A DNA stretch of 64,000 nucleotides from assembly GCA_964555735.1 (NCBI GenBank), contig CAZKTS010000038.1, forward strand, positions 6,929 through 70,928, read 5' to 3'. Shown here piece by piece: positions 10,368-32,215 of this stretch. Position 1 is the stretch's first letter; every line of letters starts with the position of its first letter. The translations under genes and the position numbers were made by a program. A model generated the notes under the pieces. That model saw only the letters and a list, made by a program, of their open reading frames with translations, had not been told where the DNA came from and made no database searches. Origin of the DNA: an uncultured Bifidobacteriaceae bacterium (GTDB lineage: Bacteria; Actinomycetota; Acidimicrobiia; IMCC26256; PALSA-555).

Positions 10368-10373
10368 CCGACG

Positions 10374-10401: not shown

Positions 10402-10425
10402 GAGCCCGCGATCGGTCGCGGCGGG

Positions 10426-10686: not shown

Positions 10687-10727
10687 GGTGTGTCCTCTTT
10701 CTCGAGCGGTGGTGTCTCGGGCGGTGG

Positions 10728-11159: not shown

Positions 11160-11358
11160 GGGGGCCCCTTGTCGTCGGCGGCGGTGCTGCGGAACGTAGT
11201 TGTACCGGCTGCCCGGGCCGCCCGCCATCACCCCGATGGCATGACTCGGGGCGTGCCGCCGGCGCCGACCGCTCATTTTCGGGTGCTCCGACGGTCTCCC
11301 TCGCGTGACAATGTGAGCCGCCCGGCCGGGCCGGCCGTCGCTCGGCGCAGGGCGCCCG

Positions 11359-11410
11359 GCACCGACCCGAACCATCGACCCGAAGCACCGACCCGAAGCA
11401 CCGACCGTGG
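11359..11410 (+). repeat. four tandem copies of a 13-bp unit (gcaccgacccgaa) ending 12 nt before the ABC ATPase start
   Basis: Units are 11359-11371 gcaccgacccgaa, 11372-11384 ccatcgacccgaa, 11385-11397 gcaccgacccgaa and 11398-11410 gcaccgaccgtgg. The last unit overlaps the GGGAG Shine-Dalgarno. Confidence 0.7.
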
Positions 11411-11422
11411 GAGCACGCGCGC

Positions 11423-13685: not shown

Positions 13686-13692
13686 CGCTTCG

Positions 13693-14592: not shown

Positions 14593-14675
14593 CGCGCCAT
14601 CGTCGCAGACCACCCGGCGCGGCACCCACACGGATCGGCGAAGATGCCGACCGACCACTGCATCGAGGAGCGCCC

Positions 14676-15703
14676 GTGAAGCAGGCCGAGTTCGACGACG
14701 GCACCGTCCACATCCGCGACGCCGAGAGCCCCGAACCCGGCGCCGAGCAGGCGCGCGTGCGCATCAGCGCGGCCGGCGTCTGCCACTCGGACCTGCACCT
14801 CGCGCGCGGCGACTGGGTCGGCGCGCCGCGCACCGGCGTGATCGGTCACGAGGCGATCGGCGTCGTCGAGGCCCTCGGTCCGGGGGCCGAGCGGTTCGTC
14901 GACATCGGCGATCGGGTGATCCTCGGCCTCGGCGGCACCGGCGGCGGCTACTGGTGCGGCGCGTGCGAGTACTGCATGAGCGGCCGACCGCGTCACTGCG
15001 CGCAGGCGCAGGGGATCATGGGCACGTTCGCGGAGCAGTTCTGCGTGTGGGCGCCGTCGCTCGTCCGCCTGCCCGACACGATCGGCGACCTCGAGGCTCC
15101 GCTCGCATGCGGCGGGCTCACCGCGTACGGCGCGGTGAAGAAGCTCGCTGCGCACGGCGTGCTCCCGGGCCGGCCGATCGCCGTGCTCGGCGCCGCCGGG
15201 GTCTCGGCCACTACGCCGTGCAGCTCGCGACCGCGTTCGGCTACGACGTCGTCGGCATCGATCTCGGGGAGGAACGGCTCGAGTTCGTGCGATCGCTCGG
15301 GGCGCGCATGGCCCTGGAGCCGGACGCCGCGCTCGAAGCGGTGCACGGCGAGCTCGGTGGTGTGGACGCCGCGCTCGTGTTCTCGGCGAAGATGTCCGCC
15401 TTCCACCTCGGGCTGCGCCTGCTCCGGCGCGGCGGCCTGTTCGTCGCGGTGGGGCTCCCGGCGACGAGCGAAGGCAGCTTCGAGCTGGACCCCTTCGAGA
15501 TCTTCATGCGCGACCCGACGATCATCTACTCCGCGGTCGGCACGGTGCAGGACATGCGCGAGCTCGTCGACCTCGCCGCCGCCGGGCGCGTGAAGACGCA
15601 CGTGTCGCGCGTCGGTGCACTGTCGGAGCTCGGCGCCATCTTCGACGAGCTCGAGTCGGGCGCATACCTCGGCCGCGCCGTCGTCACCGATCTCGGGGCC
15701 TAG
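14676..15703 (+). pseudogene. zinc-dependent alcohol dehydrogenase (MDR family) interrupted by a -1 frameshift in a G run
   Basis: Track ORFs 14676..15593 and 14954..15703 are the two halves of one ADH. Frame A gives GVCHSDLH, GHEAIGVV and ...PIAVLGAAG, then degenerates. Frame B resumes GLGHYAVQLATAFGYDVVGIDL... One extra G in the run gggg (15198-15201) would restore LGAAGGLGHYAVQLA, the Rossmann GxGGxG. Confidence 0.75.
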
Positions 15704-17885: not shown

Positions 17886-17929
17886 CGGGTCATCAAGCAG
17901 CGGGTCATCAAGCAGCGGTCATCGAGCAG
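17871..17929 (+). repeat. about four tandem 15-bp units spanning the stop codon of the ACAD gene
   Basis: ccgctcatcaagTAG / cgggtcatcaagcag / cgggtcatcaagcag / cgg-tcatcgagcag. The first unit carries the TAG stop where later units have CAG. Confidence 0.7.
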
Positions 17930-17947
17930 CCGGGCGCCGCGGGCCGG

Positions 17948-19270
17948 CTACCCGGCCAGCTGCACCCGCACGATGTTCTTCGGGTTGCAGTCGAACGACC
18001 CCGGCTTCTTCGGGTGCACCCGCACGTACTCACCGTCCTGCACCTGCGTGAGGTTGAAGCACGGGCTGGGCCGGCGGGCACCGACGTCGGTCGGTGCGAG
18101 CAGGCCGTCCGCGTCGAAGGTCTTGGTCTTCGCCAGCTCCTCGAGGAAGCGCTCCCGCGTGATCCCGTTGATGCCGTCGGCCTTCACGATCTTCTCGATC
18201 GTCTCGGTGAAGAGCATCCCCGCGGCCCACGCGACCTCCCCGAACGCGTCGACGTCCTCGGCACCCACGGTCTTCACGTAGGCGGCGAGTGCCTTGTTCG
18301 ACTTCGTCTCGTCGAGCGGGAGCGCGTTGAGGAACGCGTACTGACCCTCGACGTCGGCGCCGCCGGTCTCGAGGAACTGCTCGCTGTAGCAGGTGCGCGA
18401 GCAGTCCCAGACCTCGACGGTGTTCAGCCCCTGCAGCTTCGCCTCCTTGCGGAGCGAGACCACCTGCCCGAACGACTGGAGCGCGTACATGTAGGTGGAG
18501 CCGGCCTCGCGAGCCGCCGAGACCGCGGGCGTGAGCGCGGACTGCGCGGCGCGGGCGGAGACGCCGTAGAGACCGTCGCCGTCGAGCTCGATCCCCAAGC
18601 GCTTCGCCGCCTCGCAGTGCGCGGTGCCGGTGAGCGTGGTCGACCGCAGGTCGTTCTGCCCGACGCAGATCCCGTGCAGGTCCTTGTGCTGCGACACGTA
18701 GTACCGGACCTGACCGAACGCCACGTCGTACGTGGGCTCCGGGTCGTCCTTCGTCGTGCAGTCGATCTGGGGCGGGCTCACCGAGTACGAGACCGGCGAG
18801 CACTGGTGCACGAGCTCCTGGGTGAACGTGTTGACGTCGGGCAGACCGGTGGCCGCGCCCGTGCTGTCGACGCATCCGACCATGTCGTCGACGTTCGACA
18901 TGAACACCGCCGCAGTGCCGACCATGGCGAAGTCATTGGCACACGCCTCGATCGTGGCGTTGCGCGAGTCGCCCGCGTTCAGGTGGGAGTCGATGAAGTC
19001 GACGACGAGCTTGCGGCCCGCGATCCCGCCGTTCTTGTTGACGTACTTGGCGTAGCCCTGCATCGCATCGACGTTCGTCTGGAACTGCCCTGGGTTGAAC
19101 GGGTTGTCGACGTCGGCCACCACCGCGATGCGAATCTCCTTCGCGGTGATCCCGATCTCACCGGCTTCGGGCTTCTCCGACTGCGCCCCCGCCGGGACGA
19201 CCGCCACCGCCACCGCCGAGACCAAGAGCATGCCCACGAGCGCGGCGCGCGTCGTCCGTCGGTGCATCAT
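17948..19270 (-). CDS. secreted ABC-type substrate-binding protein (branched-chain amino acid / Peripla_BP_6-like), orphan
   Basis: 440 aa. Signal peptide MMHRRTTRAALVGMLLVSAVAVAVVPAGA; body ...IRIAVVADVDNPFNPGQFQ...GYAKYVNKNGGIAGRKLVVDFIDS... No cognate permease or ATPase genes are adjacent. Confidence 0.75.
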   Translation of the reverse strand: MMHRRTTRAALVGMLLVSAVAVAVVPAGAQSEKPEAGEIGITAKEIRIAVVADVDNPFNPGQFQTNVDAMQGYAKYVNKNGGIAGRKLVVDFIDSHLNAGDSRNATIEACANDFAMVGTAAVFMSNVDDMVGCVDSTGAATGLPDVNTFTQELVHQCSPVSYSVSPPQIDCTTKDDPEPTYDVAFGQVRYYVSQHKDLHGICVGQNDLRSTTLTGTAHCEAAKRLGIELDGDGLYGVSARAAQSALTPAVSAAREAGSTYMYALQSFGQVVSLRKEAKLQGLNTVEVWDCSRTCYSEQFLETGGADVEGQYAFLNALPLDETKSNKALAAYVKTVGAEDVDAFGEVAWAAGMLFTETIEKIVKADGINGITRERFLEELAKTKTFDADGLLAPTDVGARRPSPCFNLTQVQDGEYVRVHPKKPGSFDCNPKNIVRVQLAG

Positions 19271-19384
19271 CCGAGCTCCCCCTGGAACGGTGACGCCACC
19301 ACATCGAGCATGGGCGGCGGGCCGCAGTCTGCCATTCAGGAGATGCGCGCGGTGCGCACCCGGCGGCTCACCGGCCGGGCGGCG

Positions 19385-20368
19385 CTACCGCTCGGCCCGG
19401 TTGATCGACCGACTGACCTCGAGGACCGCACTGTCCTCGGCGAAGTCGACCGCAACGAGCGTGGGAGCACGACCGCGGAGCTCCGTGCACTCGGCGACGC
19501 GGTCGCGCAGCACGGCGAAGTTGACCACGCGCGACCGGCGGGGCCCCGCCGGGGTGACCCAGTGGTTGAGCTGGAAGATGGGGGCGTCGGTGACGCCACG
19601 GTTGTCGACGCACGACGCAGGGGTGCGGAGGTCACCGATCCGATGGAAGGTGAAGGGAGTCTCCTCCACCAGTGCGGCGAACGCGTTCGGCAGCAACGGG
19701 GGTGCATCGCCGTTCTCGAGCGTGACGACGAGTCGCTTCCCTGCATCGAGCATCTCGCCGAGCGTCGGCAGCGGCGAGCCCGACGGCACCGGCAGCAGCT
19801 CGTCGTGCAGCCCGGCCGCGTCGAGCACCGCGAGCAGACGGTCCGGCTGCACGTAGTCCTCGACCACGAACAGGAGGACCTCGTCGGGATGCTCGTCGAG
19901 GAACCTCGCGACGTCGTCGAAGGCGCTGCGCATGGTGATCGCGCCCAGCTCGCAGAGCGTGTGGCAGAGGTAGACCTTGCTCGTACCGTCGGCCGGCACG
20001 GACGCGAGGCGATCGTGCAGCCGGAGGCCGGCCTGCAGCAGCGGCTCGGGCAGATCGGTCTGGGCCGGCACCGACGTCGCGACATCCGTGTACACGCGAT
20101 CGCCGCGCGCCGACCCCAGGTAGGCGTCGATCTGGAACCCGCGGATCCCGTCGTCGAGCTGCTCGGCCATGGTCGCGCCCTGGTTCGGCCCCCGGAAGCC
20201 GTCGGCGGCCGACGACATCGAGTTGTGCGACGTGGGGAAGGCCACGGCGCCGAGCGGCCGGTCGCACAGCTCGGCCAGCCCGTTGCAGCGTGGGGGCGCG
20301 GCCTGTGCGCTCGGCGCCGCGACGGCACCGGTCGCGACGATCAGCAGTACGGCGACCAGGCGGCGCAC
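19385..20368 (-). CDS. secreted PLC-like phosphodiesterase (PI-PLC X-domain-like TIM barrel)
   Basis: Signal peptide MRRLVAVLLIVATGAVAAPSAQA, then ...FPTSHNSMSS...GIRGFQIDAY...LCHTLCELG..., resembling Ca-independent PI-PLC-like proteins. Confidence 0.65.
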   Translation of the reverse strand: MRRLVAVLLIVATGAVAAPSAQAAPPRCNGLAELCDRPLGAVAFPTSHNSMSSAADGFRGPNQGATMAEQLDDGIRGFQIDAYLGSARGDRVYTDVATSVPAQTDLPEPLLQAGLRLHDRLASVPADGTSKVYLCHTLCELGAITMRSAFDDVARFLDEHPDEVLLFVVEDYVQPDRLLAVLDAAGLHDELLPVPSGSPLPTLGEMLDAGKRLVVTLENGDAPPLLPNAFAALVEETPFTFHRIGDLRTPASCVDNRGVTDAPIFQLNHWVTPAGPRRSRVVNFAVLRDRVAECTELRGRAPTLVAVDFAEDSAVLEVSRSINRAER

Positions 20369-20392
20369 GTGAGACCGCCTCGACGAGCGGGG

Positions 20393-21568
20393 TCAGACCG
20401 CTGCGGCGACCCGCCCACGCGTGCGCAGCTCACGCCAACCGACGAGACGCGAGGCGTCCTCGTCCCAGAGCTTCAGCCGGATCGCGCGCAAGCCGTCGCG
20501 GAACGACACCGTGGGCACGTCGGCGAAGATCGAGCTCTCGTCGTGGGCACGCTGCAGGTGGTAGTTGGGGATGCGCGCGCTGAGGTGATGGACGTGGTGC
20601 AGGCCGATGTTGCCGGTGAAGAACTGCAGCACCTTCGGGAGCTTGAGGTACGAGCTGCCGCGCAGCGCCGACGCCTCGTAGCTCCAGTCCGGCGCGCGGT
20701 CCCAGTAGGTGGTCTCGAACTGGTGCTGCACGTAGAAGAGCCAGATGCCGGCCCCCCCGGCGAGGAACACGAAGGGCACTTCGACCAGCAGGAACGCCTG
20801 CCAGCCGATGAGCAGGCACAGGCCACCCACGAGGAGCACGAGGGCGAGGTTGGTGGCCCAGACGAGGCGGCGGATCGACGCCTTGCCCGACGGGTTCGCC
20901 CAGCGCGGCTCGAGCAGCATGGCGTAGATGGGACCGAGCCCGAACATCACCACGGGGTTGCGCAGCAGGCGATAGCCGATGCGCGTCGGCCACGCCCAGC
21001 TGTCGTACTCCGCGACGGTGTAGGTGGGGACGTCACCGACGCCGCGGCGCTCCAGGTCGCCCGTGGTCGCGTGGTGGACGGTGTGCTCGTGGCGCCAGCG
21101 CGCGTACGGCGTGAACACCAGCAGTCCGAGGATCGTGCCGACGATCTCGTTGGCGCGCTTGCCCGGGAGCAGCGAACCGTGCGCGCAGTCGTGGAACATG
21201 ATGTAGGTGCGCAGCAGGAAGCCGGCGGCGGGCACTGCCAGCGCGAGCGTGAGGAAGTACGAGACCTGCAGCGAGAAGTACATCGCCACCCAGAGGCCGA
21301 CGAACGGAACGACCGAGGTGGCGAGCGCCCAGAGGCTCCGGCGCAGGTCGGGGCGGGCGTAGAGCTGCACGCAGCGCTGCCAGCACTCGGCCTTGCGGGC
21401 GCAGCCGTCGCTCAGGTGCTCGGGTGCGGGGTCGTCCGGCGTCAGGTCGTCGGGGGTCGAGACGGTGGAGTCTGGGGTGAGCGTCTGCACGGGTGAGGTG
21501 TCACCAATCGGTTGACGGGCTTGCGGGCGGGGATGCCGGCCGACGACGGTGCCCGAACGAACGGGCAT
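20393..21568 (-). CDS. membrane fatty-acid desaturase
   Basis: Three His boxes: HDCAH, HEHTVHH and HHVHH. Several TM segments. ATG 21568 is preceded by AGGGGG; an alternative GTG lies at 21490. Confidence 0.85.
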   Translation of the reverse strand: MPVRSGTVVGRHPRPQARQPIGDTSPVQTLTPDSTVSTPDDLTPDDPAPEHLSDGCARKAECWQRCVQLYARPDLRRSLWALATSVVPFVGLWVAMYFSLQVSYFLTLALAVPAAGFLLRTYIMFHDCAHGSLLPGKRANEIVGTILGLLVFTPYARWRHEHTVHHATTGDLERRGVGDVPTYTVAEYDSWAWPTRIGYRLLRNPVVMFGLGPIYAMLLEPRWANPSGKASIRRLVWATNLALVLLVGGLCLLIGWQAFLLVEVPFVFLAGGAGIWLFYVQHQFETTYWDRAPDWSYEASALRGSSYLKLPKVLQFFTGNIGLHHVHHLSARIPNYHLQRAHDESSIFADVPTVSFRDGLRAIRLKLWDEDASRLVGWRELRTRGRVAAAV

Positions 21569-23745: not shown

Positions 23746-25659
23746 CTACATCACGTTGCGGACGTGGGCGGGCGCGGCGACGCGTCGGGTCGTTCGCCGG
23801 TTGCGCACGGTGCTCGTCACCTGCAGCGCGATGGCGATGCCGACCAGCGCGAGGCCGATGAGCGACAGAAGGCGGAAGTCGTCGCCACCGAGTGCCGAGC
23901 CGCCGCGGCCACCCTGCACCGACGTGGCGCTCCGAGTCACGACGCCACCCGGCGCAACGCGGATCGCGCGATCCCGCGCCACGAGGCGGGCCTCCGAGAG
24001 GAACACGGTGGCGTTCGCCGAGACGTCGAGCGCCCGGTCGGTGGCCTGCAGCTCTCCCCCGCTGATCGTCACCGCGTTGCGCGCGTCGACGCCGACCGGG
24101 GCCCGCACGACATCGTTCCCCAGCAGCTGCGCGCCCGGCGCCGCCACGTGCATGCCGGCGACCGATGCGTCGGAGACGTCGTTGTCGCGGATCGTGGCCG
24201 CCATCGCGCGGTCGTAGACCTTCACACCGGTGGCGACGTGGGAGATCGCGTTCCCCTCGGCGAGGACCCGGTCCGCGCCTTGGTGCGAGATCCGGACGCC
24301 GACCTCGGATCCGCTGATGGTGTTGCGCCGGATCGTCAGGTCCGCCGACGACGCCGAGACGATGCCTTCGCGACCGTTGTCGGTGACGACGTTGTCCTCG
24401 ATCAGGTTCCGATCGGAGTGCTCGTCCATCATGATGCCGTTGCCGGCGTTGTCGTGGCTGTAGTTCGCCCGCACGACGGAGTCGTGCACGAAGCGGGAGA
24501 AGATGATGCCGTGGCTCCCGTTGCCGTAGACCTCGTTCTCGACGAACACGAGCCCCGAGCTGTTGTCGTGCGGGTCGATGCCGTAGCGGACGTTGTCGGC
24601 CACCACGTTGCGCTCGAATCGGACATCGACGGCCTCGTAGGTGTAGATGCCGAAGAAGTTGCGCTGGAACGACGAGTCGGTGACGAGGCCCGTCGTCCCG
24701 AGACGCCACACGACGCCGTAGGACGACGTCCGGTCGGAGCCGAGGTCCTCGAAGCGGGAGCCGCTGATGTCGAGCCGACCACCGTTCTGGTAGCGGACGT
24801 ACGGCCGTTCGTCGACCACCGAGGTGTCCGGCGCGTTCGCAGCCTCGTTCCACGACGTGACCGTCACGCCGCTGAACGACGCGCTCGAACGGTTCCCCGA
24901 GAGCGACACCACCGGCAGGTCGGCCAGCCGTACGGTCGTGACCCGGGGAGCCCGCACGTCGAGCTGCGTGCCGTCGGTCTGCACCAATGCGGCGCGCAGC
25001 AGGAAGACACCTGGCTCGACCTCGCCGATCCAGCTCGGGTCGTCGATGACCGCGCTGATCTCGTCGAGACCGACCGGGCGACCCGCACCGGCGAACGGGA
25101 TCTGGCGGACGAGCTGCCCGCCGGCGACCAGCCGGATCGAGGTCGCGCCGAAGCGGATCGCGCGCCACTCGGCCGGATACGAGCAGGGGAATGCCACCAG
25201 GCTCGTGGGACTCGCGACGCGCTTGAGGTCGCGCGCGGGATCGTCCGTGTGGATGTCGGGCTTGCCGAGGCCCAGGTCACACGTCCCGGACGATGCGGGT
25301 GGCGTCGGGGCCGACGAGCCCGAGGACGACGACGAGCCACGCGGGGCGCTGGGAGGCGGTGCCGGCGGCACGGGTGCGGGCGCGGGCGCCGGCGCGCGCG
25401 GGCCGGGACGACCGCCATCGCCGCGGGGCCCGCCGCCACCGTGGCCGCCCCCGCCGTGACCACCGCCGCCGTCGTAGCCCCCGCCACCGGGGCCGCCCCC
25501 GTAGCCACCGCCACCGGGCCCACCGCCGTAGCCGCCACCGCCCGGACCGCCGCCCCCACCGGTCTGGAACGGAGCCGCGGCGCCACCACCGAGCACCAGC
25601 GCACCGATGCCGAGGGCCAGGGTCATCACCGTGCTCGCAACGCGCAGTCTCGAGCTCAT
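23746..25659 (-). CDS. mannuronan-C5-epimerase-family right-handed beta-helix protein: signal peptide, Gly-rich and Pro-rich linkers, C-terminal TM anchor
   Basis: ATG 25659 overlaps the GT2 stop (ATGA). Motif NVRYGIDPHDNSSGLVFVENEVYGNGSHGIIFSR (YG[FI]DPH[DE], encoded at 24565-24585), as in AlgG/AlgE epimerases. Repeated PbH1-like turns (NVVTDNGREGI, NTISGSEVGV, GNAISH...). C-terminus FRLLSLIGLALVGIAIALQVTSTVRNRRTTRR. Confidence 0.8.
   Translation of the reverse strand: MSSRLRVASTVMTLALGIGALVLGGGAAAPFQTGGGGGPGGGGYGGGPGGGGYGGGPGGGGYDGGGGHGGGGHGGGGPRGDGGRPGPRAPAPAPAPVPPAPPPSAPRGSSSSSGSSAPTPPASSGTCDLGLGKPDIHTDDPARDLKRVASPTSLVAFPCSYPAEWRAIRFGATSIRLVAGGQLVRQIPFAGAGRPVGLDEISAVIDDPSWIGEVEPGVFLLRAALVQTDGTQLDVRAPRVTTVRLADLPVVSLSGNRSSASFSGVTVTSWNEAANAPDTSVVDERPYVRYQNGGRLDISGSRFEDLGSDRTSSYGVVWRLGTTGLVTDSSFQRNFFGIYTYEAVDVRFERNVVADNVRYGIDPHDNSSGLVFVENEVYGNGSHGIIFSRFVHDSVVRANYSHDNAGNGIMMDEHSDRNLIEDNVVTDNGREGIVSASSADLTIRRNTISGSEVGVRISHQGADRVLAEGNAISHVATGVKVYDRAMAATIRDNDVSDASVAGMHVAAPGAQLLGNDVVRAPVGVDARNAVTISGGELQATDRALDVSANATVFLSEARLVARDRAIRVAPGGVVTRSATSVQGGRGGSALGGDDFRLLSLIGLALVGIAIALQVTSTVRNRRTTRRVAAPAHVRNVM
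25414..25563 (-). repeat. in-frame Gly-rich coding repeat (GGGGPGGGGY x3, GGGGH x2) followed by a Pro/Ala/Ser-rich linker (to about 25285)
   Basis: Translation is GGGGGPGGGGYGGGPGGGGYGGGPGGGGYDGGGGHGGGGHGGGGPRGDGG. The nucleotide sequence is a ggc/ggg/cca-type short tandem repeat. Confidence 0.8.
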
Positions 25660-26846
25660 ACCCGTGCCACCTCCCCGTCGACGACCGCGACGCGTCGGGT
25701 GAGCCAACGCTGGGTCGTCAACGTTCCGAGTGCGTAGATCTTCACGAGGGCCATCACGAACGTGAGGCCGACGAAGGCGGGCAGGATCACCAGGTCGACC
25801 GGGCGGCGCCGCAGGTGCGGCAGCAGCTTCGCGGCGCGGCTCACCATCCACCACGCGAACAGGATCCCCGCGAACGCGAATCGGCCGCCCACGAGTGCAA
25901 GCGTGAACACCACCGGCGACACCAAGAGCGTGAAGCCAGAGATCGCCTTGTCCACCATCGTGAACCCGAGGAACGGGTACCGCAGGATCCAGCGCGACGA
26001 CAGGGCGCGCAGGTCCGAGCGCCACGTGTTGCGGCTCCACCGGAGGCGCTGGAGCAGGAACTCTCGTGGTCGGGAAGGGAAGGTCGACCACACCCGAGCC
26101 GAACGCTGCATGTAGGTGCGCGAGCCCTGCGCGAGGAGCAGGCTCGTCAGGCGCTTGTCGTCTCCCGAGTTGCAGGGCCGACCCGCGAAGGTCTCGTCCA
26201 GGAACTCGTCACCGACGGACATGAGGAAGCTCCGGCGGTACACCGCGGTGCGCCCGGAGAGGCACGAGACCGCTCGCCCGACCACCGTCTGGGCCGCGTT
26301 CTCGTCGAAGTACCGGTAGTCCAGGTAGATGTCGTTGACGCGTTCGAGGAACGAACGCGGGTTGTACACGTTCTGGCGCGTGCCCACGCCGGTGATCCGC
26401 GGATCGACGAACGGCTCGCACACACGATCCGAGACGTCCTCGGCCCAGATGGTGTCGGAGTCCACGAGCGCGACCAGCTCGGTGCGAGCGTGCTCCCAAC
26501 CCGTTCGCAGCGCCGGCCGCTTGCCCGGGACGCTCGTGGGCACGACGGTCACCGCGTGGCTCGTGGCGAGCCGCTCGGCGATGGCCATGCAGCGCTCGTC
26601 GGTGGTGTCGATGACGCAGATCACCTCGACCACGTGGCGGTTCGCGAGCCACGACTGCACCGCGTACCGGAAGATCGTCGGATCCTCGTCGTAGACCGGA
26701 GTCACGACGGTGATCGGCTCCCGGTGATCGCTCGTGACCGGGGCGTAGTACGCGGCGGGCACGCGGCGGACCAGCCACGACGACCAGCGCACGAGCCCGA
26801 TCACCCCGAGCGGGATCACGTACCAGAAGGTCCAGATGCTGTTCAC
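25656..26846 (-). CDS. processive family-2 glycosyltransferase, hyaluronan/chitin/NodC-synthase-like, with integral membrane C-terminus
   Basis: 396 aa. VVTPVYDEDP, LVDSDT (DxD), SGDDKRLTSLLL (G-[DE]-D-[RK]-x-LT) and QRLRWSRNTWRS (QxxRW). One N-terminal and several C-terminal TM helices. The GTG start overlaps the upstream stop. Confidence 0.9.
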   Translation of the reverse strand: MNSIWTFWYVIPLGVIGLVRWSSWLVRRVPAAYYAPVTSDHREPITVVTPVYDEDPTIFRYAVQSWLANRHVVEVICVIDTTDERCMAIAERLATSHAVTVVPTSVPGKRPALRTGWEHARTELVALVDSDTIWAEDVSDRVCEPFVDPRITGVGTRQNVYNPRSFLERVNDIYLDYRYFDENAAQTVVGRAVSCLSGRTAVYRRSFLMSVGDEFLDETFAGRPCNSGDDKRLTSLLLAQGSRTYMQRSARVWSTFPSRPREFLLQRLRWSRNTWRSDLRALSSRWILRYPFLGFTMVDKAISGFTLLVSPVVFTLALVGGRFAFAGILFAWWMVSRAAKLLPHLRRRPVDLVILPAFVGLTFVMALVKIYALGTLTTQRWLTRRVAVVDGEVARV

Positions 26847-27934
26847 CGGAGGTGCTCCTCGAGGTCGGGTGCCCGATGACGCGGTCCGGGGGCGGGCAGG
26901 TGCTCGTCACAGCTCGGGTTCCGAACCGCGTCGTCGGAGATCGGGTCGTCACCGGACCCGCGGATCTCGTTGCCGCACACGCGCCCCTGCGGCGCGCGCA
27001 TCACCTTGATGCCGGCGCCGTCGTTGTCGACGAGCTCGTTGCCGATGACGTCGTTGTCGGTGCCATCGGCCTCGGTGTCACCGCCCAATCGGATCCCGGC
27101 GCCGTCGTTGCCGGTGGAGCGGTTGTACCGGATCACGTTCGCGCTGCCGCGCGAATCGAAGCCGCCGGACTCCGGGTCGCGCTGCTCCGTGCAGTCGTTG
27201 AACTCGACGACGTTGGCGGTGGCCGCCTCCTTGATGTCGACGCACTCGTTGCCGCGGGTCGAGATCGTGTTGTCCCGCACGGTCACGCGCGTCGTCGCGT
27301 CCGGTACCGACGACGGGTTGCGATCGAGCTGCTCGGGCGCGGTGCCGATGTAGACGCCCTCGCCGTTCTTGCCGGATCCGGGGCTCTCGACGAAGTCCTC
27401 ACGACCACAGTCGTGGATCGAGTTGCGCTCGATGACGACGTCCGACGACAGGTACTTCACGCGCACGCACTCGCCGCGCATGTCGGCGACCTCGTTGCCG
27501 CGCACGGTCACATCACGGGCACCTTCGATCCAGATGCCGGTGTCCAGACCGGCGAACGCCAGCCGCTCGATCACCCAATGGTCGTTCCGCACCTGGAGGA
27601 CCCGGCCGGACCGGTCGGCGTCGCCGACGAGCACCGCCCCGCGCCCCCGGAGTGTGATCGGGCTCCCCGGGGAGCCGTCGACCCTCGTGGTCAGCGCTTC
27701 GGCGTAGGTCCCTCGCGCGATCTCCACCGTCGTCCCCGGGGCGGCGCGGTCGATCGCGGCCTGCACCGTCCGCAACGGAGCGGCCTTGGTGCCGGTCGCC
27801 TCGTCGTCGCCCCGCGGCGAGACCCAGAGGTGCCGCGTCGGCGAGGCGGGAGCCGCACCGACGGGCGCGACATCGGCGATGACGACGGCGATGGCGGCAA
27901 GGACCGCGACGACCATCCCCTTGGTGGCGCTCAT
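26843..27934 (-). CDS. secreted right-handed beta-helix protein (DUF1565/pectate-lyase-fold; candidate polysaccharide lyase or hydrolase)
   Basis: Signal peptide MSATKGMVVAVLAAIAVVIADVAPVGAAPA, then HLWVSPRGDDEATGTKAAPLRTVQAAIDRAAPGTTVEIARGTYAE and repeated N/D-G beta-helix turns. Confidence 0.8.
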   Translation of the reverse strand: MSATKGMVVAVLAAIAVVIADVAPVGAAPASPTRHLWVSPRGDDEATGTKAAPLRTVQAAIDRAAPGTTVEIARGTYAEALTTRVDGSPGSPITLRGRGAVLVGDADRSGRVLQVRNDHWVIERLAFAGLDTGIWIEGARDVTVRGNEVADMRGECVRVKYLSSDVVIERNSIHDCGREDFVESPGSGKNGEGVYIGTAPEQLDRNPSSVPDATTRVTVRDNTISTRGNECVDIKEAATANVVEFNDCTEQRDPESGGFDSRGSANVIRYNRSTGNDGAGIRLGGDTEADGTDNDVIGNELVDNDGAGIKVMRAPQGRVCGNEIRGSGDDPISDDAVRNPSCDEHLPAPGPRHRAPDLEEHLR

Positions 27935-29001
27935 CGGTCGACGAGCTCCGGACGCTCGCTACCGGTCGCAGCGTCGGGCGCCGCAAGCTCACGCTTCAGC
28001 CGCTCGATCGTGCGGATCGGTTCGGCCTCGACCCCCAGCAGCTCCGCCGTGAGCAGGCTCGCCCAGGTGCCCTGGTAGGCGAGGTCGAGCAGCTGGGCCA
28101 GGAGTCCGGCACCCCCGCCGACCACGTCGACGACGCCGAAGGCGGACTCGTCGAGGATGGGACGCATGGCGGCGAATCGCCGACCGACGCGTGGGTGCTC
28201 GTACGCGTGCCGCAGGAGGACGGCGCAGTGGCGACGCGCCCCCGGTTCCCAGGCGCAGATCTCGTTGTGGTTCGCCTCGGGCAGCGCGCTGGCGAACGCG
28301 GCGATCTTGGCGTTCTCGTTGAAGTCGGCCTTCCAGCGGGCGGCGGCGACCGAGCCGGCAGCGTCACCACCGTGCACGACCGGCGTGCGCGCGGCAGCGA
28401 GCTCCGCGGCCACGTGCACGGTCGAGCTCGCGCCGGTCATCTCGTCGCGGCGCCACGCGAGCGCTTGCGCCGCGTTCAGCGCGTCGTCCAACCCGCCGGG
28501 ATAGACATCGAGGCCCTCGAGCAGCGCGACACAGGCCGCGGTCAACGATCCGAGCGCAGCGCGCGGCATCATCCCGCCCGGCACCGGCACCCGCACGATC
28601 TCCGGATCTGTCGCGGCGATCGCCGCGAGCTCACCGCCCGACGTCACGACCGCGCACCGCGTCCCTCGCGCCCGCGCCCACCGGAACGCACTGAGGGTCT
28701 CCTCGGTGTTCCCGGAGTGGGACACCGCGACCACCACGGATCGGGGCGACACCCAGCGCGGCAGCTCGTAGTCGCGCACGACCACGATCGGGATCGGACG
28801 GTTCGAATGTGCGACCGCGCCGGTGACCGCCAGCTCGGCCGCGAGCCCGGATCCGCCCATCCCACTGAACACGATGCAGTCGACGTCGCGGATCGCGCCG
28901 GCAGTCCGCAGCACGTCGCCTGCGCCGACCGCAGCGTCGACGAGCTGCTCGGGGAACGCGGTGATGGCGTCGCGAAATGTCGGTGCGGTGGCTGTCGTCA
29001 C
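27931..29001 (-). CDS. SIS-domain bifunctional phosphoglucose/phosphomannose isomerase (PGI/PMI type)
   Basis: 356 aa. ...CIVFSGMGGSGLAAELA...VAVSHSGNTEETL...; C-terminal half ...FNENAKIAAFASALPEANHNEICAWE... is typical of archaeal/actinobacterial PGI/PMI. Confidence 0.8.
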   Translation of the reverse strand: MTTATAPTFRDAITAFPEQLVDAAVGAGDVLRTAGAIRDVDCIVFSGMGGSGLAAELAVTGAVAHSNRPIPIVVVRDYELPRWVSPRSVVVAVSHSGNTEETLSAFRWARARGTRCAVVTSGGELAAIAATDPEIVRVPVPGGMMPRAALGSLTAACVALLEGLDVYPGGLDDALNAAQALAWRRDEMTGASSTVHVAAELAAARTPVVHGGDAAGSVAAARWKADFNENAKIAAFASALPEANHNEICAWEPGARRHCAVLLRHAYEHPRVGRRFAAMRPILDESAFGVVDVVGGGAGLLAQLLDLAYQGTWASLLTAELLGVEAEPIRTIERLKRELAAPDAATGSERPELVDR

Positions 29002-29930
29002 GTCGACCGACCTGTTGCCGCCAGCTCACCGTCCACCGAGGGGGCGGACGGCTCGTGCATCGCCTCCTGGGCCGCGATCGCCTCGAGCCCCTCGTTGACC
29101 GTGATCACCCCGCGCAGGAGCGGCATGTCGACGCCCATGTCCTGAGCGAAGCCGAGAAAGCCGCGCGTGTCCTTGGGCAGGCACGCACCGCCGTAGGGGC
29201 GGCCGGCGCGCACGCCGTACTCGGGGTTGAAGCTCGCCTCGGCCGACCGCGCCACCGTGGTGGCGACGCGATCGAGCTCGACGTTCGCCTGGTTGGCAAC
29301 CTGCCACATCTCGTTCCAGAAGCTGATCTTCGTGGCGTTGAAGAGGTTGTGCGCGCACTTCACGAACTCGGCTTCTGCCGGGTTGGTGAACGTGCGGATC
29401 TCGCCGCCGAACTCGCCGTACAGCTCCGCAAGGCGCTCGACGGTGCGGGCGCTGCGCGCACCGAGGACAGTCATCCACGGCATCAGGTAGTCCTCCCGCG
29501 AGCAGGCGGCACGCAGGAACTCGGGGTTCGACGCGACTGCGAAGTCGGTGCCGTTGCGCTTGCCACCGGACGCCTGCTCCAGGATCGGGAGCACGAGCTG
29601 CTCGCAGGTGCCGGGTGGGACCGTGGAGCGCACCACGACGGTGTGGAAGGCGTTGGCGCCGCGCAGGGCAGCACCCACGGTCTCGGCCGCGGCGCGCACG
29701 GCAGAGAGCTCATAGCGGTTGCCGTTGTTCGGCGTCGGCACCGTCAGGAAGATGAACGCCGGAGCACCGCTGAGATCGAGCTTCATGCTCGCGGCATGAC
29801 CGCGGCTGCGCAGCTGCTCCACACGCTCTGCATTGATGTCGACGAACTGGACGGCGTGACCCTTGGTCTCGAGCCCGGTTCCGGTCGCCGTGCCGACGAC
29901 ACCAGATCCAACGATGATCGCGCGTGCCAT
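28998..29930 (-). CDS. UDP-glucose/GDP-mannose dehydrogenase family protein, short form lacking the C-terminal nucleotide-sugar-binding domain
   Basis: ATG 29930 follows GAGGG. MARAIIVGSGVVGTATG (Rossmann), NPEFLR, and catalytic GGACLPKD. The protein ends about 40 aa after the catalytic Cys at 310 aa, whereas family members are usually around 390-440 aa. Confidence 0.8.
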   Translation of the reverse strand: MARAIIVGSGVVGTATGTGLETKGHAVQFVDINAERVEQLRSRGHAASMKLDLSGAPAFIFLTVPTPNNGNRYELSAVRAAAETVGAALRGANAFHTVVVRSTVPPGTCEQLVLPILEQASGGKRNGTDFAVASNPEFLRAACSREDYLMPWMTVLGARSARTVERLAELYGEFGGEIRTFTNPAEAEFVKCAHNLFNATKISFWNEMWQVANQANVELDRVATTVARSAEASFNPEYGVRAGRPYGGACLPKDTRGFLGFAQDMGVDMPLLRGVITVNEGLEAIAAQEAMHEPSAPSVDGELAATGRST

Positions 29931-30222
29931 TTTCACCCTCGTCTCGGTCGTGGGGATGTCCTGATCGACGGTACGGAGGCGGGCGGTCGATGCCATCCGC
30001 CGCGGCGCGCGAAATGCGTTCGGGATCTCGCGCGTCGCGACGTGCCAACGGTCACGGTGACGACGACGGAAAATCCTGGTGAAGCCCGTTTGCCGCGCGC
30101 CCACAAGGGGCATGGCGGCCGAACAGGGTGGCGCGGCGGAGCACACTGAGGCGGGGCGAAACCCGACTCCGCACGCAGCGATTGAACGTCCGACCGCGAA
30201 CGGGAGCAGGTGCCACGTGCCA

Positions 30223-31401
30223 ATGCGGATCGATGCCGCCATGTACGACGTCCCGTCGTCCGCTCGCGGCACGGACGAGGCCGTCGACAGCCTTCGCGCG
30301 GTCAACGAGTTCCTGGGTCGGGTGATCGGAGCGCTGCTCGCCGACCGGGGGCTGCCCGGTGTGGCCGAAGAGCTCGCCGCCGCGCTCGGTCGACCCGTCG
30401 CGCTCTGGGGTGCCGCCGACCAGGTGCTCGCCACGAGCGGTGACCACGCGGCGACCGCGGAGGACCGCACCCCCGAGTGGCGCCGCGTCGCGGTGTGCCA
30501 CGGCACCGATGCGGTGACGATCGGGATCCACGACCCCGACGGCTCGACGACCGACCTCGTCGCACTGGTCCTCGAGCACGCGGCGCAGATCACCGCACTC
30601 GAGCTCTACCGGATCCGCAGCGTCGCCGACACCGAGCTCAAGCTCTGGGGCGACCTCAGCCGCGCCCTGCTCGGCCCGGACGATCCCGAGCGGGTGGGGA
30701 TGCTCGCGGCGTCACTGGGCTACGACCTCGACCGCCGGCGCCGAGTCATCGTCACCGAGCCCCGGGTCTCGGACCAGGAGCTGCAGCAGCTCCACGGCCA
30801 AGTGCGCGCGCTCGACACGCAGGCCATGGCAACCCGCCACGACGAGCACCCCGTGCTCATCGTCACCGCCGACTGCGACCCGCTCGCCCTGCAGCGTCTG
30901 ATCGAGTCGCGCGACACCACCCTCTGCCTGGGCGCCAGCAGCCCGACGTCGTCAGAGCGCGGGCTGAGCGCACCACTGCGTGAGGCCCATCTCGCCCTGC
31001 GCGTGAACACCACGTTCGGGGGCGCGAACGTGCTGCCCTTCGAGGACCTCGGCCTCTACCAGCTGTTCGCACACGCCGACCCGATCGACCTCGAAGCGCA
31101 CGCGGCGCAATGGCTCCAGCCCGTCCTGGACCACGACCGCGCGCGCAACGGCGAGCTGCTCCAGACGCTCACCGAGTACCTGGAGCGCGGCGGCGCGGTC
31201 GAGGCGACGGCCCAGGCGCTGTTCATCCACCGGAGCACGCTCAGCTACCGGCTGCGCCGCATCGAGTCCTTGCTGGGTCGGGACCTCGCGAACGTCGACA
31301 CTCGCTTCAACCTCCAGCTGGCCACGCGGGCGCTCGTAGCGGCGGCCTCCATGCGCAGCGCCGTCGACGACGCGTCGGAGACCGGAGCGTCGATACGCTG
31401 A
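30223..31401 (+). CDS. PucR/CdaR-family transcriptional regulator
   Basis: The C-terminus LLQTLTEYLERGGAVEATAQALFIHRSTLSYRLRRIESLLGRDL is the PucR C-terminal HTH. The start is uncertain (ATG 30223, GTG 30217 or upstream). Divergent from the polysaccharide operon. Confidence 0.8.
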   Translation: MRIDAAMYDVPSSARGTDEAVDSLRAVNEFLGRVIGALLADRGLPGVAEELAAALGRPVALWGAADQVLATSGDHAATAEDRTPEWRRVAVCHGTDAVTIGIHDPDGSTTDLVALVLEHAAQITALELYRIRSVADTELKLWGDLSRALLGPDDPERVGMLAASLGYDLDRRRRVIVTEPRVSDQELQQLHGQVRALDTQAMATRHDEHPVLIVTADCDPLALQRLIESRDTTLCLGASSPTSSERGLSAPLREAHLALRVNTTFGGANVLPFEDLGLYQLFAHADPIDLEAHAAQWLQPVLDHDRARNGELLQTLTEYLERGGAVEATAQALFIHRSTLSYRLRRIESLLGRDLANVDTRFNLQLATRALVAAASMRSAVDDASETGASIR

Positions 31402-31405
31402 GGCC

Positions 31406-32215
31406 ATGGCGCCGGAGACCGATGCGGAGCTCACGTTCAAGGATCCGCAGAAGCGCCGATCGGTCACCTTCACCGTCTTGCCGATGACGAAGCTCGACGT
31501 CATCACGCACCAGCGCAAGCCCAGCGACACGCACGTCGGCAAGATCGTCGATTCGATCGAGCGCGTCGGCTTCGTCGCCCCGCTCGTCGTCGTGCGCAGC
31601 GAGGCCGACGATGACGCCTACCTCGTGATCGACGGCCAGCACCGCTTCCTCGCTGCGCAGCAGCTCGGCCTCAAGCGACTCCCGGCGGTGATCGTGCCCG
31701 GCGACACCGCGCGCCGGATGCTCACGCTCAACGTGGAGAAAGAGCCCAACATCCGCGAGCGGTCATCGGTGGCCCTCTCCGTCTACCGGGAGCTGGTGGA
31801 GCGTCGGCCGACGATGAGCGAGGACGACCCCGAGGTCGCGGACTCGGTCCACCACGCCCACTACGTGACCCTCGGTCTCGCGTACGCGGCGTACGGCCGC
31901 CTCGCGGGCAGCCAGTACGAGTCGATCCTCAAGAAGTGCGACGGCTACCTCGACCAACCGCTCGTCGAGTGCCTTCCCGTGCGCGAGGCGCGCGCCGAGA
32001 AGCTCGTCGAAGCCCACCGCCTCGTGCGATCGATCACGGATCAGCTCAAGGAGATGGGCGCCTGGCACGAGTTCGTCGGAGCCCAGATCGTCGCCGCGGC
32101 GAACCCGCTCCGGCGCGCCCGCAAGCAGCATTCGTTCGACGAGACCTTCGACAAGATGCTCACCAAGCTCCGCGCCCTCGATGAGCACCCCGAGAAGCTA
32201 CGGAGCAGCGACTGA
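31406..32215 (+). CDS. ParB/Srx-fold N-terminal domain protein with a DGQHR motif (DndB/ParB-like)
   Basis: 269 aa starting 4 nt after the regulator stop. ...VGKIVDSIERVGFVAPLVVVR...YLVIDGQHRFLAAQQLGLKRLPAVIV... Confidence 0.75.
   Translation: MAPETDAELTFKDPQKRRSVTFTVLPMTKLDVITHQRKPSDTHVGKIVDSIERVGFVAPLVVVRSEADDDAYLVIDGQHRFLAAQQLGLKRLPAVIVPGDTARRMLTLNVEKEPNIRERSSVALSVYRELVERRPTMSEDDPEVADSVHHAHYVTLGLAYAAYGRLAGSQYESILKKCDGYLDQPLVECLPVREARAEKLVEAHRLVRSITDQLKEMGAWHEFVGAQIVAAANPLRRARKQHSFDETFDKMLTKLRALDEHPEKLRSSD

Follow-up and report, generated by a model that had tools for sequence, protein, structure and literature searches.

A five-gene actinobacterial operon that appears to encode a minimal secreted polyuronate pathway, probably alginate-like

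Epimerases and lyases with the fold of AlgG share a common first step, the abstraction of the C5 proton, and AlgE7 is bifunctional; in P. aeruginosa AlgG has an additional structural role. The CAZy families PL7 and PL14 include beta-1,4-glucuronan lyases as well, and the S. pneumoniae cps3DSUM genes follow the layout dehydrogenase, synthase, NTP-transferase and mutase. The alginate lyase PsAly (PL31) prefers polymannuronate, and upon mutation of its Tyr184 or Lys221 activity was not measurable. The biochemically characterised GDP-mannose dehydrogenases (GMDs) of brown algae have a length of 315-320 amino acids. Phylogenomic work on brown algae has already pointed out, one by one, homologues of GMD, ManC5-E and PL41 in actinobacteria. 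In a published comparison actinobacterial sequences were ~30% identical to brown-algal GMDs and UGDs alike, and an origin of the algal GMD from actinobacteria is now doubted in the literature.

The window, i.e. the whole stretch of 64,000 nucleotides which was analysed, contains five minus-strand genes from 29930 to 23746, joined by four start/stop overlaps, and a divergent regulator gene:

28998..29930, minus strand: two-domain NDP-sugar 6-dehydrogenase, 310 aa (PF03721 + PF00984)
27931..29001, minus strand: phosphoglucose/phosphomannose isomerase (PGI/PMI) paralogue, bifunctional type, 356 aa (PF10432 1.7e-35, bact-PGI_C/SIS)
26843..27934, minus strand: secreted right-handed beta-helix protein, 363 aa (DUF1565/Beta_helix/NosD; PsAly homology)
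25656..26846, minus strand: membrane-embedded processive GT2, NodC/class I hyaluronan synthase type, 396 aa (profile, phmmer, fold)
23746..25659, minus strand: AlgG-type polyuronate C5-epimerase homologue, 637 aa (AlgG homology, motif)
29931..30222, no strand: intergenic region between dehydrogenase and PucR genes, presumed promoter/operator
30223..31401, plus strand: PucR/CdaR-family regulator (HTH_30 PF13556 8.9e-22; GGDEF_2 PF17853 1.2e-10)

In the list of open reading frames the five genes end at 28998, 27931, 26843, 25656 and 23746, and the downstream genes start at 29001 (GTG), 27934 (ATG), 26846 (GTG) and 25659 (ATG), so that each junction is an overlap of 4 nt. These coordinates agree exactly with the overlaps given in an earlier, sequence-only reading (GTGA 28998-29001, ATGA 27931-27934, GTGA 26843-26846, ATGA 25656-25659). 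The ATG at 25659 is internal to the longest reading frame of the epimerase-like gene. The first gene starts with the ATG at 29930, with GAGGGTG upstream of it. Public gene calls back the starts independently by their identical lengths for the GT2 (P0001, 396 aa, 100% identity), the dehydrogenase (P0121, 310 aa, 94% identity) and the isomerase (P0400, 356 aa, 99% identity), and the metagenome relative L088 has an epimerase-like protein of 637 aa and a lyase-like protein of 364 aa. The five genes are probably co-transcribed as one operon. Searches with Pfam and NCBIfam profiles, phmmer searches of the PDB and AF2 models compared by Foldseek bore out the five homology assignments of the sequence-only reading, and every motif which it had quoted for the dehydrogenase, the GT2 and the epimerase-like protein was located.

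Hundreds of actinobacterial genomes contain related gene sets, and dozens keep the arrangement of dehydrogenase, GT2 and beta-helix genes. Acidimicrobiia, Streptomyces and Pseudonocardia are among the groups that have the dehydrogenase-GT2 core, in most cases together with an epimerase-like protein carrying the DPH motif; a scan of 81 non-redundant loci, the window among them, gave a DPH-motif protein in 50. In the metagenome contigs L088 and L089 the five genes follow in exactly this order, again with the PucR gene divergent beside them. Such conservation points to more than chance. Among 59 well-flanked related loci the short dehydrogenase is found in 53, an AlgG-like protein in 49 and any alginate-lyase-family protein in 50 (PL14 in 35, PL7 in 10, a PL31-like lyase in 8). 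The lyase added to the core differs by lineage (Pfam E-values 3e-55 for PL14 and 8e-38 for PL7), and three unrelated alginate-lyase families would therefore have been recruited to one core. Some Streptomyces loci add an NTP-transferase homologous to GDP-mannose pyrophosphorylase and an equivalog-level PMM; the best four solved relatives of this NTP-transferase are three mannose-1-phosphate guanylyltransferases and one unnamed nucleotidyl transferase (1e-28 to 1e-29), compared with 7e-20 for UDP-glucose pyrophosphorylase. Mannose-activation genes thus appear to have been recruited twice independently, as PGI/PMI in the subclade of the window and as NTP-transferase plus PMM in Streptomyces. Neither GlcNAc-supply genes nor hyaluronate- or heparin-type lyases were found in any related locus examined. 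The earlier expectation of new biology holds in so far as no description of an experimental characterisation of the cluster was found in the literature; it has to be narrowed because the cluster is evidently not a one-off but part of a widespread, unstudied actinobacterial family, and because of the individual homologues noted before.

The last gene encodes a protein with a signal or anchor sequence (aa 5-31), a linker (aa 33-140) which is Gly-rich and then Pro/Ser-rich, a beta-helix and, by hydropathy, a C-terminal transmembrane helix (aa 593-619) followed by a basic tail, a layout which suggests tethering to the membrane. Its match to AlgG (4nk6, E 2e-30) covers 325 aa (209-533). The beta-helix contains Y359-G-I-D362-P-H364-D365 (DPHD 362-365) and R389; its YGIDPHD and HGIIFSR align with YGIDPHD and HGIIISR of AlgG, the catalytic Arg being retained. 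Its assignment as an AlgG homologue, made before from the motif, is clearly borne out by this match to the solved enzyme. Polymannuronate is the substrate of its only characterised relatives.

The other beta-helix protein has a hydrophobic N-terminus (aa 1-31) with a signal peptide and matches PsAly (6kfn, E 2.5e-12, aa 52-272), its only characterised relative. PsAly Tyr184, Lys221, Glu181, Glu216, Asp219 and Asp250 align with Y195, K235, E192, E230, D233 and D260, so that the two residues whose mutation left no measurable activity are retained, as are the three ligands of the first metal site. The protein, described before as DUF1565-like, can thus be assigned more narrowly as a homologue of PL31-type polyuronate (alginate) lyases, in line with the lyase role proposed for it before.

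The dehydrogenase consists of the NAD-binding (UDPG_MGDP_dh_N) and central domains, while the C-terminal NDP-binding domain is absent from its Pfam matches. It carries GSGVVG at aa 8, NPEFLR at 135 and GGACLPKD at 247 with the catalytic Cys250, and scores 202 bits with TIGR03026, over the cut-off. A truncation was considered as the cause of its shortness and rejected, as all of the closest 120 homologues have 289-373 aa; the equally short brown-algal GMDs are a precedent and share with it GxGVVG, an Ala after NPEFLR and a Pro two residues before GGxCLPKD. The P. aeruginosa GMD (2.8e-39) is its best bacterial solved relative, with 138 bits versus at most 103 for bacterial UGDHs, and in Foldseek (AF2 pLDDT 85) 3vtf and 1mfz are tied at the top. 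The enzyme is probably a GDP-mannose (or UDP-glucose) dehydrogenase giving the uronate donor.

The isomerase reaches 1e-58 to 1e-68 with the NCBIfam PGI/PMI models, slightly under their cut-offs. It has only four close relatives, beyond which identity is 48% or less (named Acidimicrobiia PGI/PMIs ~42%, one of which, P0423, adjoins PMM). The gene is kept at the equivalent operon position in L088 and L089 and is missing from 85 other related loci. As a specialised paralogue it would feed Man-6-P (or Glc-6-P) to the pathway.

The GT2 shows DSD at 129, GDDKR at 228 (GDD 228-230) and QRLRW at 266-270. Its AF2 model (pLDDT 85.6) resembles hyaluronan synthases (HAS; TM 0.73-0.75), then PcManGT, BcsA and chitin synthases, a fold consistent with channel formation, and the enzyme is likely to polymerise the chain and to translocate it. 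No special similarity to Alg8 was seen, Alg8 itself being outside the direct comparison; a hyaluronan-synthase-type enzyme appears to stand in the place of the known alginate synthase. The best-matching annotated plasmid gene is NodC (29.5% identity, 90% coverage by tblastn).

With moderate confidence the operon is read as a minimal synthase-dependent pathway of the monoderm type, whose secreted product would be a polyuronate, most probably a mannuronan partly turned alginate-like. The PGI/PMI paralogue would convert Fru-6-P to Man-6-P, from which housekeeping PMM and GDP-mannose pyrophosphorylase would yield GDP-mannose, and the dehydrogenase would oxidise this at C6 to GDP-mannuronic acid, as in the short brown-algal GMDs. 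The GT2 would polymerise the chain and thread it via its own transmembrane channel, in which case the Alg44/AlgK/AlgE apparatus would not be needed; domain searches found no equivalents of these in the operon or its flanks, in keeping with the earlier reading. Outside the membrane the AlgG-like enzyme, anchored to the surface through its C-terminal helix on the long Gly/Pro-rich tether, would epimerise some residues, His364 taking the C5 proton and Arg389 neutralising the carboxylate. The PL31-like lyase would trim or clear the polymer, a role matching that of Pseudomonas AlgL. On this account, which is supported by homology and structure models, a single actinobacterial operon would cover synthesis, export, epimerisation and trimming of an acidic sugar polymer.

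The substrates are predicted from homology, and the main rival is a UDP-based version, which is possible but less likely: the dehydrogenase would form UDP-GlcA, the GT2 a beta-1,4-glucuronan or an alternating GlcA polymer (hyaluronan-, heparosan- or cellubiuronic-acid-like), some of the GlcA would be turned into L-IdoA by the AlgG-like enzyme to give a glycosaminoglycan-like product, and the lyases would be glucuronan lyases, which PL7 and PL14 also hold. In its favour and against an alginate-like product, the top PDB match of the dehydrogenase is an archaeal UDP-glucose dehydrogenase (9e-41), about equally near as GMD, its best named NCBIfam matches are UDP-glucose dehydrogenases (AglM 3.5e-47, TuaD 3.8e-35), and the ~30% identity to algal GMDs and UGDs alike and the doubted origin of the former weaken the algal precedent. 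The closest characterised relatives of the GT2, NodC (TIGR04242, its best curated family, 1e-34) and class I hyaluronan synthases, use UDP-sugars; its nearest solved structures are those of Chlorella virus HAS (CvHAS, 1e-20) and Xenopus HAS1 (5e-14), B. anthracis HasA matches with 23.9% identity over 89% of the length, and the acceptor site of CvHAS has Cys267 and Gly270 at the positions of C195 and G198. The Streptomyces layout resembles cps3DSUM, and the isomerase could work as a PGI. On the other side the GT2 has Asn183 and Asn273 where CvHAS has Arg256 and Ser345, the recruited accessory genes are mannose-specific by their best matches (guanylyltransferase matches at 1e-29, PMI, PMM), the genes and lyases expected around GlcNAc polymers were not found, and the characterised relatives of both beta-helix proteins point to polymannuronate. 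Of the two parallels which had been called equally good, that with algD, algA (PMI), alg8, algG and a lyase is therefore favoured, also by the PL14 and PL7 lyases of related loci, and that with hasB and hasA plus an epimerase, for all its HAS/NodC and UDP-glucose dehydrogenase similarities, is less supported.

It is unlikely that a polyuronate is made without epimerisation at the polymer level, the DPHD protein being a second lyase or a non-catalytic scaffold for polymer binding or export. The chemistry shared by epimerases and lyases of this fold, the bifunctional AlgE7 and the structural role of AlgG would allow it, the NCBIfam AlgG model is matched at 2.6e-35 with 122 bits versus an equivalog cut-off of 700, and the position of AlgG Arg345 is variable among family members, where R, K, Q or N occur, with Gln in Streptomyces and Glu in Pseudonocardia. 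Against it, YG-DPH is kept across three divergent clades, with the Arg conserved in the window too, and dedicated lyases adjoin the protein in 50 of the 59 loci, so that a further lyase would be redundant. A neutral, chitin- or NodC-like product, with dehydrogenase and beta-helix genes serving something else, is very improbable in spite of the NodC matches, since NodC scores 120 bits versus a cut-off of 550, the C6-dehydrogenase accompanies the GT2 in 53 of the 59 loci and uronate-only enzymes (lyases, epimerase) do so in most, and here both genes lie in one overlapping operon with two genes between.

In the intergenic region neither a sigma-70-like promoter nor an Rfam element was found, a result which says nothing either way in an actinobacterium of 71% GC. 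The PucR-family protein, whose divergent gene had been noticed before and whose family is confirmed by its GGDEF-like sensor domain and HTH_30, is a candidate regulator of the operon. Its gene is not beside the cluster in more distant loci and adjoins it in the closest relatives, L003, L004, L088 and L089.

The five genes of the operon are read from the minus strand and are joined by four overlaps of 4 nt each, as the sequence-only reading had described and as the stop and start coordinates of the open reading frames confirm. Every motif quoted in that reading is present in the translated proteins, its overall observation of an overlapped exopolysaccharide operon held, and its interpretation as the source of an alginate- or glycosaminoglycan-like polyuronate was supported and sharpened.

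Features of the operon and its regulator (window positions; genes from the ORF listing)
29930-28998, minus strand: short dehydrogenase, 310 aa, start codon ATG
29001-27931, minus strand: phosphoglucose/phosphomannose isomerase (PGI/PMI), 356 aa, start codon GTG
27934-26843, minus strand: PL31-like lyase, 363 aa, start codon ATG
26846-25656, minus strand: GT2 synthase, 396 aa, start codon GTG
25659-23746, minus strand: AlgG-like epimerase homologue, 637 aa, start codon ATG
25240-25563, minus strand: linker of the epimerase homologue (aa 33-140), 67% Gly (GGGGPGGGGY-type repeats), then Pro/Ser-rich
30223-31401, divergent from the operon: PucR-family regulator (HTH_30 8.9e-22, GGDEF_2 1.2e-10)

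The ATG of the first gene at 29930 is preceded by a Shine-Dalgarno-like sequence, GAGGGTG. The choice of starts is backed by public gene calls for the GT2 (396 aa, 100% identity), the dehydrogenase (310 aa, 94% identity) and the PGI/PMI (356 aa, 99% identity), and the lyase-like and epimerase-like proteins of a metagenome relative, with 364 and 637 aa, agree with the starts in the window. As the flanking genes, which encode a luciferase-like oxidoreductase, a fatty-acid desaturase, an acyl-CoA dehydrogenase and a two-component system, are unrelated to the operon, the unit consists of the five genes and the divergent PucR-family regulator. The GC content is about 71% throughout the window, and searches for promoters, terminators and Rfam elements, which are uninformative at this GC content, returned none. 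A ParB_N-domain protein of 269 aa (31406-32215, plus strand), for which PADLOC gave a weak hit to a type II methyltransferase model, begins 5 nt past the stop of the regulator gene.

The last protein of the operon matches the solved AlgG at 2e-30 over 325 residues. The comparison with AlgG which had been proposed for the placement of the DPHD motif aligned both YGIDPHD and the arginine motif HGIIFSR with their counterparts in the solved enzyme (YGIDPHD and HGIIISR), the key residues being Y359, D362, H364, D365 and R389. His319 and Arg345 of AlgG have reportedly been proposed as the catalytic base and as the residue neutralising the carboxylate, respectively. The NCBIfam AlgG equivalog model NF038177 was matched with 122 bits at a cut-off of 700; on these matches the protein is a homologue of AlgG and not an equivalog. 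It has an N-terminal hydrophobic segment and a C-terminal transmembrane helix with a basic tail, and these hydrophobic ends together with the Gly/Pro/Ser linker suggest an ectoenzyme tethered to the membrane. The linker, in which the DNA forms a tandem repeat (25465-25554, 3.3 copies of a 27-nt unit), may serve as a flexible tether and may vary in length. Epimerase-like proteins of related loci fall into three clades, and YG-DPH is kept in all of them. In several Pseudonocardia loci (L032, L034, L052, L084 and others) the epimerase-like protein is found about 3-5 kb downstream of the GT2 and carries YG(I/V)DPHT and HGIILAE, with the last aspartate changed to threonine and a glutamate at the position of Arg345 of AlgG; a PL7 alginate lyase adjoins its gene, which represents a third variant of the cluster.

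The DUF1565-like beta-helix protein, which had been guessed to be a lyase, contains a signal peptide and is a homologue of PsAly (PDB 6KFN; E 2.5e-12), an endolytic PL31 alginate lyase of Paenibacillus sp. FPU-7 with a preference for polymannuronate. The alignment argues for the guess: the essential Tyr184 and Lys221 of PsAly correspond to Y195 and K235 of the putative lyase, the metal ligands Glu181, Glu216 and Asp219 to E192, E230 and D233, and Asp250 to D260 (the offset of +34 between chain and paper numbering was verified on ten residues). From the seven invariant active-site residues of PsAly (K128, H154, R156, Y184, K221, D250 and K252) only the tyrosine, the lysine 221 and the aspartate are kept, the conservative or non-conservative replacements being K128 to T132, H154 to R158, R156 to K160 and K252 to R262. 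PsAly serves catabolism, whereas the lyase of the window is encoded within a biosynthetic operon.

The best family matches of the GT2 are NodC (1e-34, far under the equivalog cut-off) and the hyaluronan synthases (HAS; 1e-20). Identity amounts to 29.5% with NodC and 23.9% with HasA of B. anthracis, over about 90% of the length. An AF2 model (pLDDT 85.6) was found nearest to the HAS of Chlorella virus (CvHAS) and to Xenopus HAS1 (XlHAS1) with a Foldseek E of 1e-19 and TM values of 0.73-0.75, followed by an archaeal membrane mannosyltransferase, BcsA and chitin synthases. The signature of class I HAS is found in DSD129, GDDKR228 and QRLRW266 together with a predicted HAS-type architecture of transmembrane and interface helices. 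Two acceptor-site residues of CvHAS, C267 and G270, are kept as C195 and G198, and R256 and S345 align with N183 and N273.

The dehydrogenase consists of PF03721 and PF00984 only and lacks PF03720, i.e. the C-terminal NDP-binding domain; it clears the cut-off of TIGR03026. Its best solved relatives are an archaeal UDP-glucose dehydrogenase (UGDH; 9e-41) and the GDP-mannose dehydrogenase (GMD) of P. aeruginosa (2.8e-39), with bacterial UGDHs well behind, and in the structural comparison of an AF2 model (pLDDT 85) archaeal UGDH and GMD were tied again. Homology to AlgD was found at 2.8e-39, with 29% identity in the Foldseek alignment. A truncated pseudogene was rejected as an explanation, as all 120 nearest homologues are short (289-373 aa, two domains); the catalytic motifs, which are invariant among the homologues, also count against it. 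An exhaustive search of the superfamily yielded 309 representatives (of clusters at the 50%-identity level) with E <= 1e-30. Among the best 150 of these the short form dominates by a large majority, most being 280-340 aa long, and there the short forms typically carry GxGVVG and, where NPEFLR is present, mostly an alanine next to it; the long forms, which are lower in the ranking, have GxGYVG and mostly NPEFLREG. The current annotation of these short, "truncated" nucleotide-sugar dehydrogenases is not uniform, and some of them are named 2-dehydropantoate reductase domain proteins.

The GMD of Ectocarpus reportedly lacks the C-terminal residues, about 120 in number, and is nevertheless specific for GDP-mannose. 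This absence is supported by the lengths of the biochemically characterised GMDs of Saccharina, which have 320 and 315 aa and contain GxGxVG and GGxCLPKDV. As short algal GMDs have been characterised, a functional short NDP-sugar dehydrogenase has a precedent, and this precedent is a GMD. The Saccharina enzymes are set apart from bacterial GMDs by a valine in the glycine motif, an Ala-Val pair and a proline before GG, and the GSGVVG, NPEFLRAA and P245-Y-GGACLPKD of the window protein match, in a comparison at motif level only, the features listed for SjGMD1/2, GMDs of the short brown-alga type. In a published comparison actinobacterial sequences were only about 30% identical to algal GMDs and UDP-glucose dehydrogenases alike. 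When brown-algal members were sought among distant short dehydrogenases by cluster look-up, only metagenome proteins without names were returned. One distant short dehydrogenase (36% identical) is found in another conserved context on the metagenome contigs L086 (6824-11379) and L087, where the order is GHMP kinase, short dehydrogenase, Asn-synthase-like amidotransferase and NUDIX. The two-domain superfamily probably serves several uronate or uronamide pathways.

The second protein of the operon belongs to the bifunctional PGI/PMI family, with scores slightly under the curated cut-offs, and within it to a small diverged clade whose relatives outside the clade are at most 48% identical. A housekeeping copy was rejected, since named Acidimicrobiia PGI/PMIs, one of which (P0423) sits beside a phosphomannomutase (PMM), are only about 42% identical. 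The idea that the gene is unique to the window was rejected as well: it is absent from 85 related loci, yet it occupies the same position in the metagenome contigs L088 and L089, which also carry the same divergent PucR gene.

A search of 185,579 species-representative genomes with the GT2 gave 296 confirmed matches. Relatives with at least 58% identity occur in Acidimicrobiia, Streptomyces, Pseudonocardia, Actinocrinis, Kineosporiaceae and others, the nearest being Acidimicrobiia metagenome-assembled genomes, from which class the window probably derives as well. The linkage of the genes is conserved. Counted over 59 non-redundant loci with enough flanking DNA, the short dehydrogenase is present in 53, the AlgG-like protein in 49 and any of three lyase types in 50 (PL14 in 35, PL7 in 10, PL31-like in 8); a GDP-mannose pyrophosphorylase (GMPP)-like NTP-transferase is found in 11 and a PMM in 8, and the PGI/PMI gene in 0 of these loci, unlike in the two metagenome contigs. 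Across all fetched loci, as searched by tblastn, the gene for the short dehydrogenase is mostly found some 1 kb upstream of that for the GT2. Pfam matches of the lyases reached 3e-55 for PL14 (PF21294) and 8e-38 for PL7 (PF08787). The cluster is a member of a widespread, apparently uncharacterised actinobacterial gene-cluster family, the recurrent neighbours of which are lyases, GMPP, PMM, regulators and ABC transporters; genes for GlcNAc supply were found neither among these neighbours nor in the Pfam matches of the operon. Some Streptomyces loci add an NTP-transferase and an equivalog-level PMM. The four best solved relatives of this NTP-transferase (1e-28 to 1e-29) are three mannose-1-phosphate guanylyltransferases and one unnamed nucleotidyl transferase, and its UGPase match is at 7e-20.

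Several further genes were seen in these loci. A beta-helix protein of about 600 aa directly follows the GT2 in clusters of the Streptomyces and Pseudonocardia type (47 of the 59 loci); the 602-aa example in the Streptomyces locus L001 (11227-13035) lacks a DPH motif, and no solved relative of it was found. In one close relative, L004, a BcsA-like GT2 carrying a PilZ domain comes after the cluster (13478-15394), and in another, L003, a PAS-GGDEF-EAL protein is encoded two genes downstream (10212-12503); this hints at a c-di-GMP-linked regulation of the matrix not visible in the window itself. The Streptomyces loci L014-L023 and L070 contain genes for a LacI-family regulator and a sugar ABC transporter (substrate-binding protein, permease) beside the PL14 lyase, on its downstream side, and these genes could serve the re-uptake of oligo-uronates.

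For the substrates, topology, co-transcription and regulation of the cluster we infer the following scheme. A uronate donor would be formed in the cytoplasm by the PMI, housekeeping PMM and GMPP and the short dehydrogenase, and the HAS-type GT2 alone would polymerise and translocate the chain. The tethered AlgG-like enzyme would then epimerise the chain at C5 on the cell surface, the secreted PL31-like lyase would trim it, and the PucR-family protein would regulate the operon. As to the identity of the polymer, which we infer throughout, the balance tips modestly towards a mannuronan or alginate-like product, because such relatives of the epimerase homologue and of the lyase as have been characterised act on polymannuronate, because mannose-activation genes have been recruited twice, independently, and because among solved bacterial enzymes GMD comes closest to the dehydrogenase. 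The main rival, a glucuronan or HA-like polymer that would be made from UDP-GlcA and epimerised from GlcA to IdoA, appears less probable; in its favour, the relatives of the GT2 use UDP-sugars and the family matches of the dehydrogenase are UGDH-like. An extension of the mannuronan reading would regard the cluster family as a hitherto unrecognised, Alg8-independent alginate pathway of Actinomycetota, with the HAS/NodC-type GT2 as mannuronan synthase. On this view the cluster would unite the three enzyme types found in brown algae (short GMD, DPHD epimerase, PsAly/SjAly-type lyase) and would be the prokaryotic counterpart of the brown-algal pathway, perhaps even its origin; we consider this extension speculative and rather unlikely.

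Like the alg operon of Pseudomonas and Azotobacter (algD-8-44-K-E-G-X-L-I-J-F-A), the cluster brings together in one operon an NDP-sugar 6-dehydrogenase from the AlgD/UGDH superfamily, a GT2 synthase of the membrane, a beta-helix homologue of AlgG in which DPHD and the catalytic arginine are kept, a dedicated lyase and a mannose-6-phosphate isomerase. It differs in that the synthase, judged by its family matches, is NodC/HAS-like and not Alg8-like, the lyase is PL31-like and not a PL5 AlgL, the dehydrogenase is without the GDP-binding domain at the C-terminus of the three-domain AlgD, and the epimerase homologue is predicted to be tethered to the membrane on a monoderm surface. Pfam scans of the operon and flanking proteins detected no PilZ/Alg44-like co-polymerase, no AlgK or AlgE for export across an outer membrane and no AlgX or AlgI/J/F for acetylation, in agreement with the earlier claim that equivalents of Alg44, AlgK and AlgE are absent. 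Judged by its predicted proteins the cluster works like the alg system and is not a member of it, with Alg8/44/K/E/X/I/J/F missing and AlgL and AlgD replaced. In a systematic survey of synthase-dependent exopolysaccharide operons, the predicted alginate operons belonged largely to Pseudomonas spp. and Actinobacteria were mentioned for Pel operons only, and a 2024 analysis described bacterial alginate biosynthesis as a trait of Azotobacter and Pseudomonas.

The class I HAS loci (streptococcal hasABC, hasACB of B. anthracis pXO1, Chlorella virus HAS) resemble the cluster in a small GT2 of the self-translocating type with DxD, GDD(R/K) and QxxRW, for which HAS is the best structural match, in the full-length similarity of this GT2 to HasA, and in a putative uronate-forming dehydrogenase sharing the operon with the GT2. 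Unlike in these loci, identity is only 18-24%, the dehydrogenase is of the short type, the hasC/GlcNAc logic is missing, an epimerase and alginate-type lyases are added, and the acceptor-site residues are partly kept. The type 3 locus of S. pneumoniae, cps3DSUM, directs a synthase-dependent acidic polymer by a dehydrogenase, one processive HAS-related GT2, an NTP-transferase and a phosphomutase in a row; this capsule is made from UDP-Glc and UDP-GlcA, and the locus is not known to contain an epimerase or lyase. The Streptomyces version of the cluster repeats this order of functions, but its NTP-transferase best matches GDP-mannose pyrophosphorylases.

In its predicted enzyme set the closest parallel of the cluster is that with brown algae, where a dehydrogenase of the GMD family that is some 310-320 aa long and lacks the C-terminal domain (GxGVVG, RA(A/V), P-x-GGxCLPKD), DPHD epimerases and beta-helix lyases of the PsAly/SjAly type likewise occur together with the absence of an Alg8 homologue. 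The brown-algal pathway comprises a short GMD, the ManC5-E family and PL41 lyases, and its mannuronan synthase is still unidentified. The algal genes form dispersed multigene families, whereas the window has one operon with a candidate synthase. Papers on brown algae mention actinobacterial homologues of single genes in phylogenomic contexts; a characterisation of the actinobacterial cluster or its product was not found in that part of the literature which could be searched.

If the mannuronan reading is true, alginate-like polymers and extracellular uronate epimerisation would reach a new phylum with new machinery, and Actinomycetota of soil and water, Streptomyces and Pseudonocardia among them, would join the organisms with alginate-like matrix polymers. 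To our knowledge, uronate epimerisation at the polymer level has otherwise been described in brown algae and for the glycosaminoglycans of animals. In a cell that lacks an outer membrane, one HAS-type synthase would do the work of the entire Alg8/44/K/E machinery, and the very large family of "truncated" nucleotide-sugar dehydrogenases would obtain a biochemical role. It has long been proposed that brown algae acquired their alginate genes from actinobacteria; the operon would be a tractable object to test this origin, and its GT2 family would be the place to seek the brown-algal mannuronan synthase. The compact cassette of five genes may also be worth trying in heterologous hosts as a means of producing epimerised polyuronates.

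Two observations concern other reading frames of the window. Very long frames antisense to real genes (e.g. 17099-21496, plus strand, 1465 aa, and many others) were removed by a GC3 filter and rejected as genes, being artefacts of the 71% GC content. A frame of 679 aa at 41649-43688 (plus strand) contains three repeats of the neocarzinostatin family (PF00960), an unusual multi-repeat architecture for a domain of the apoprotein type.
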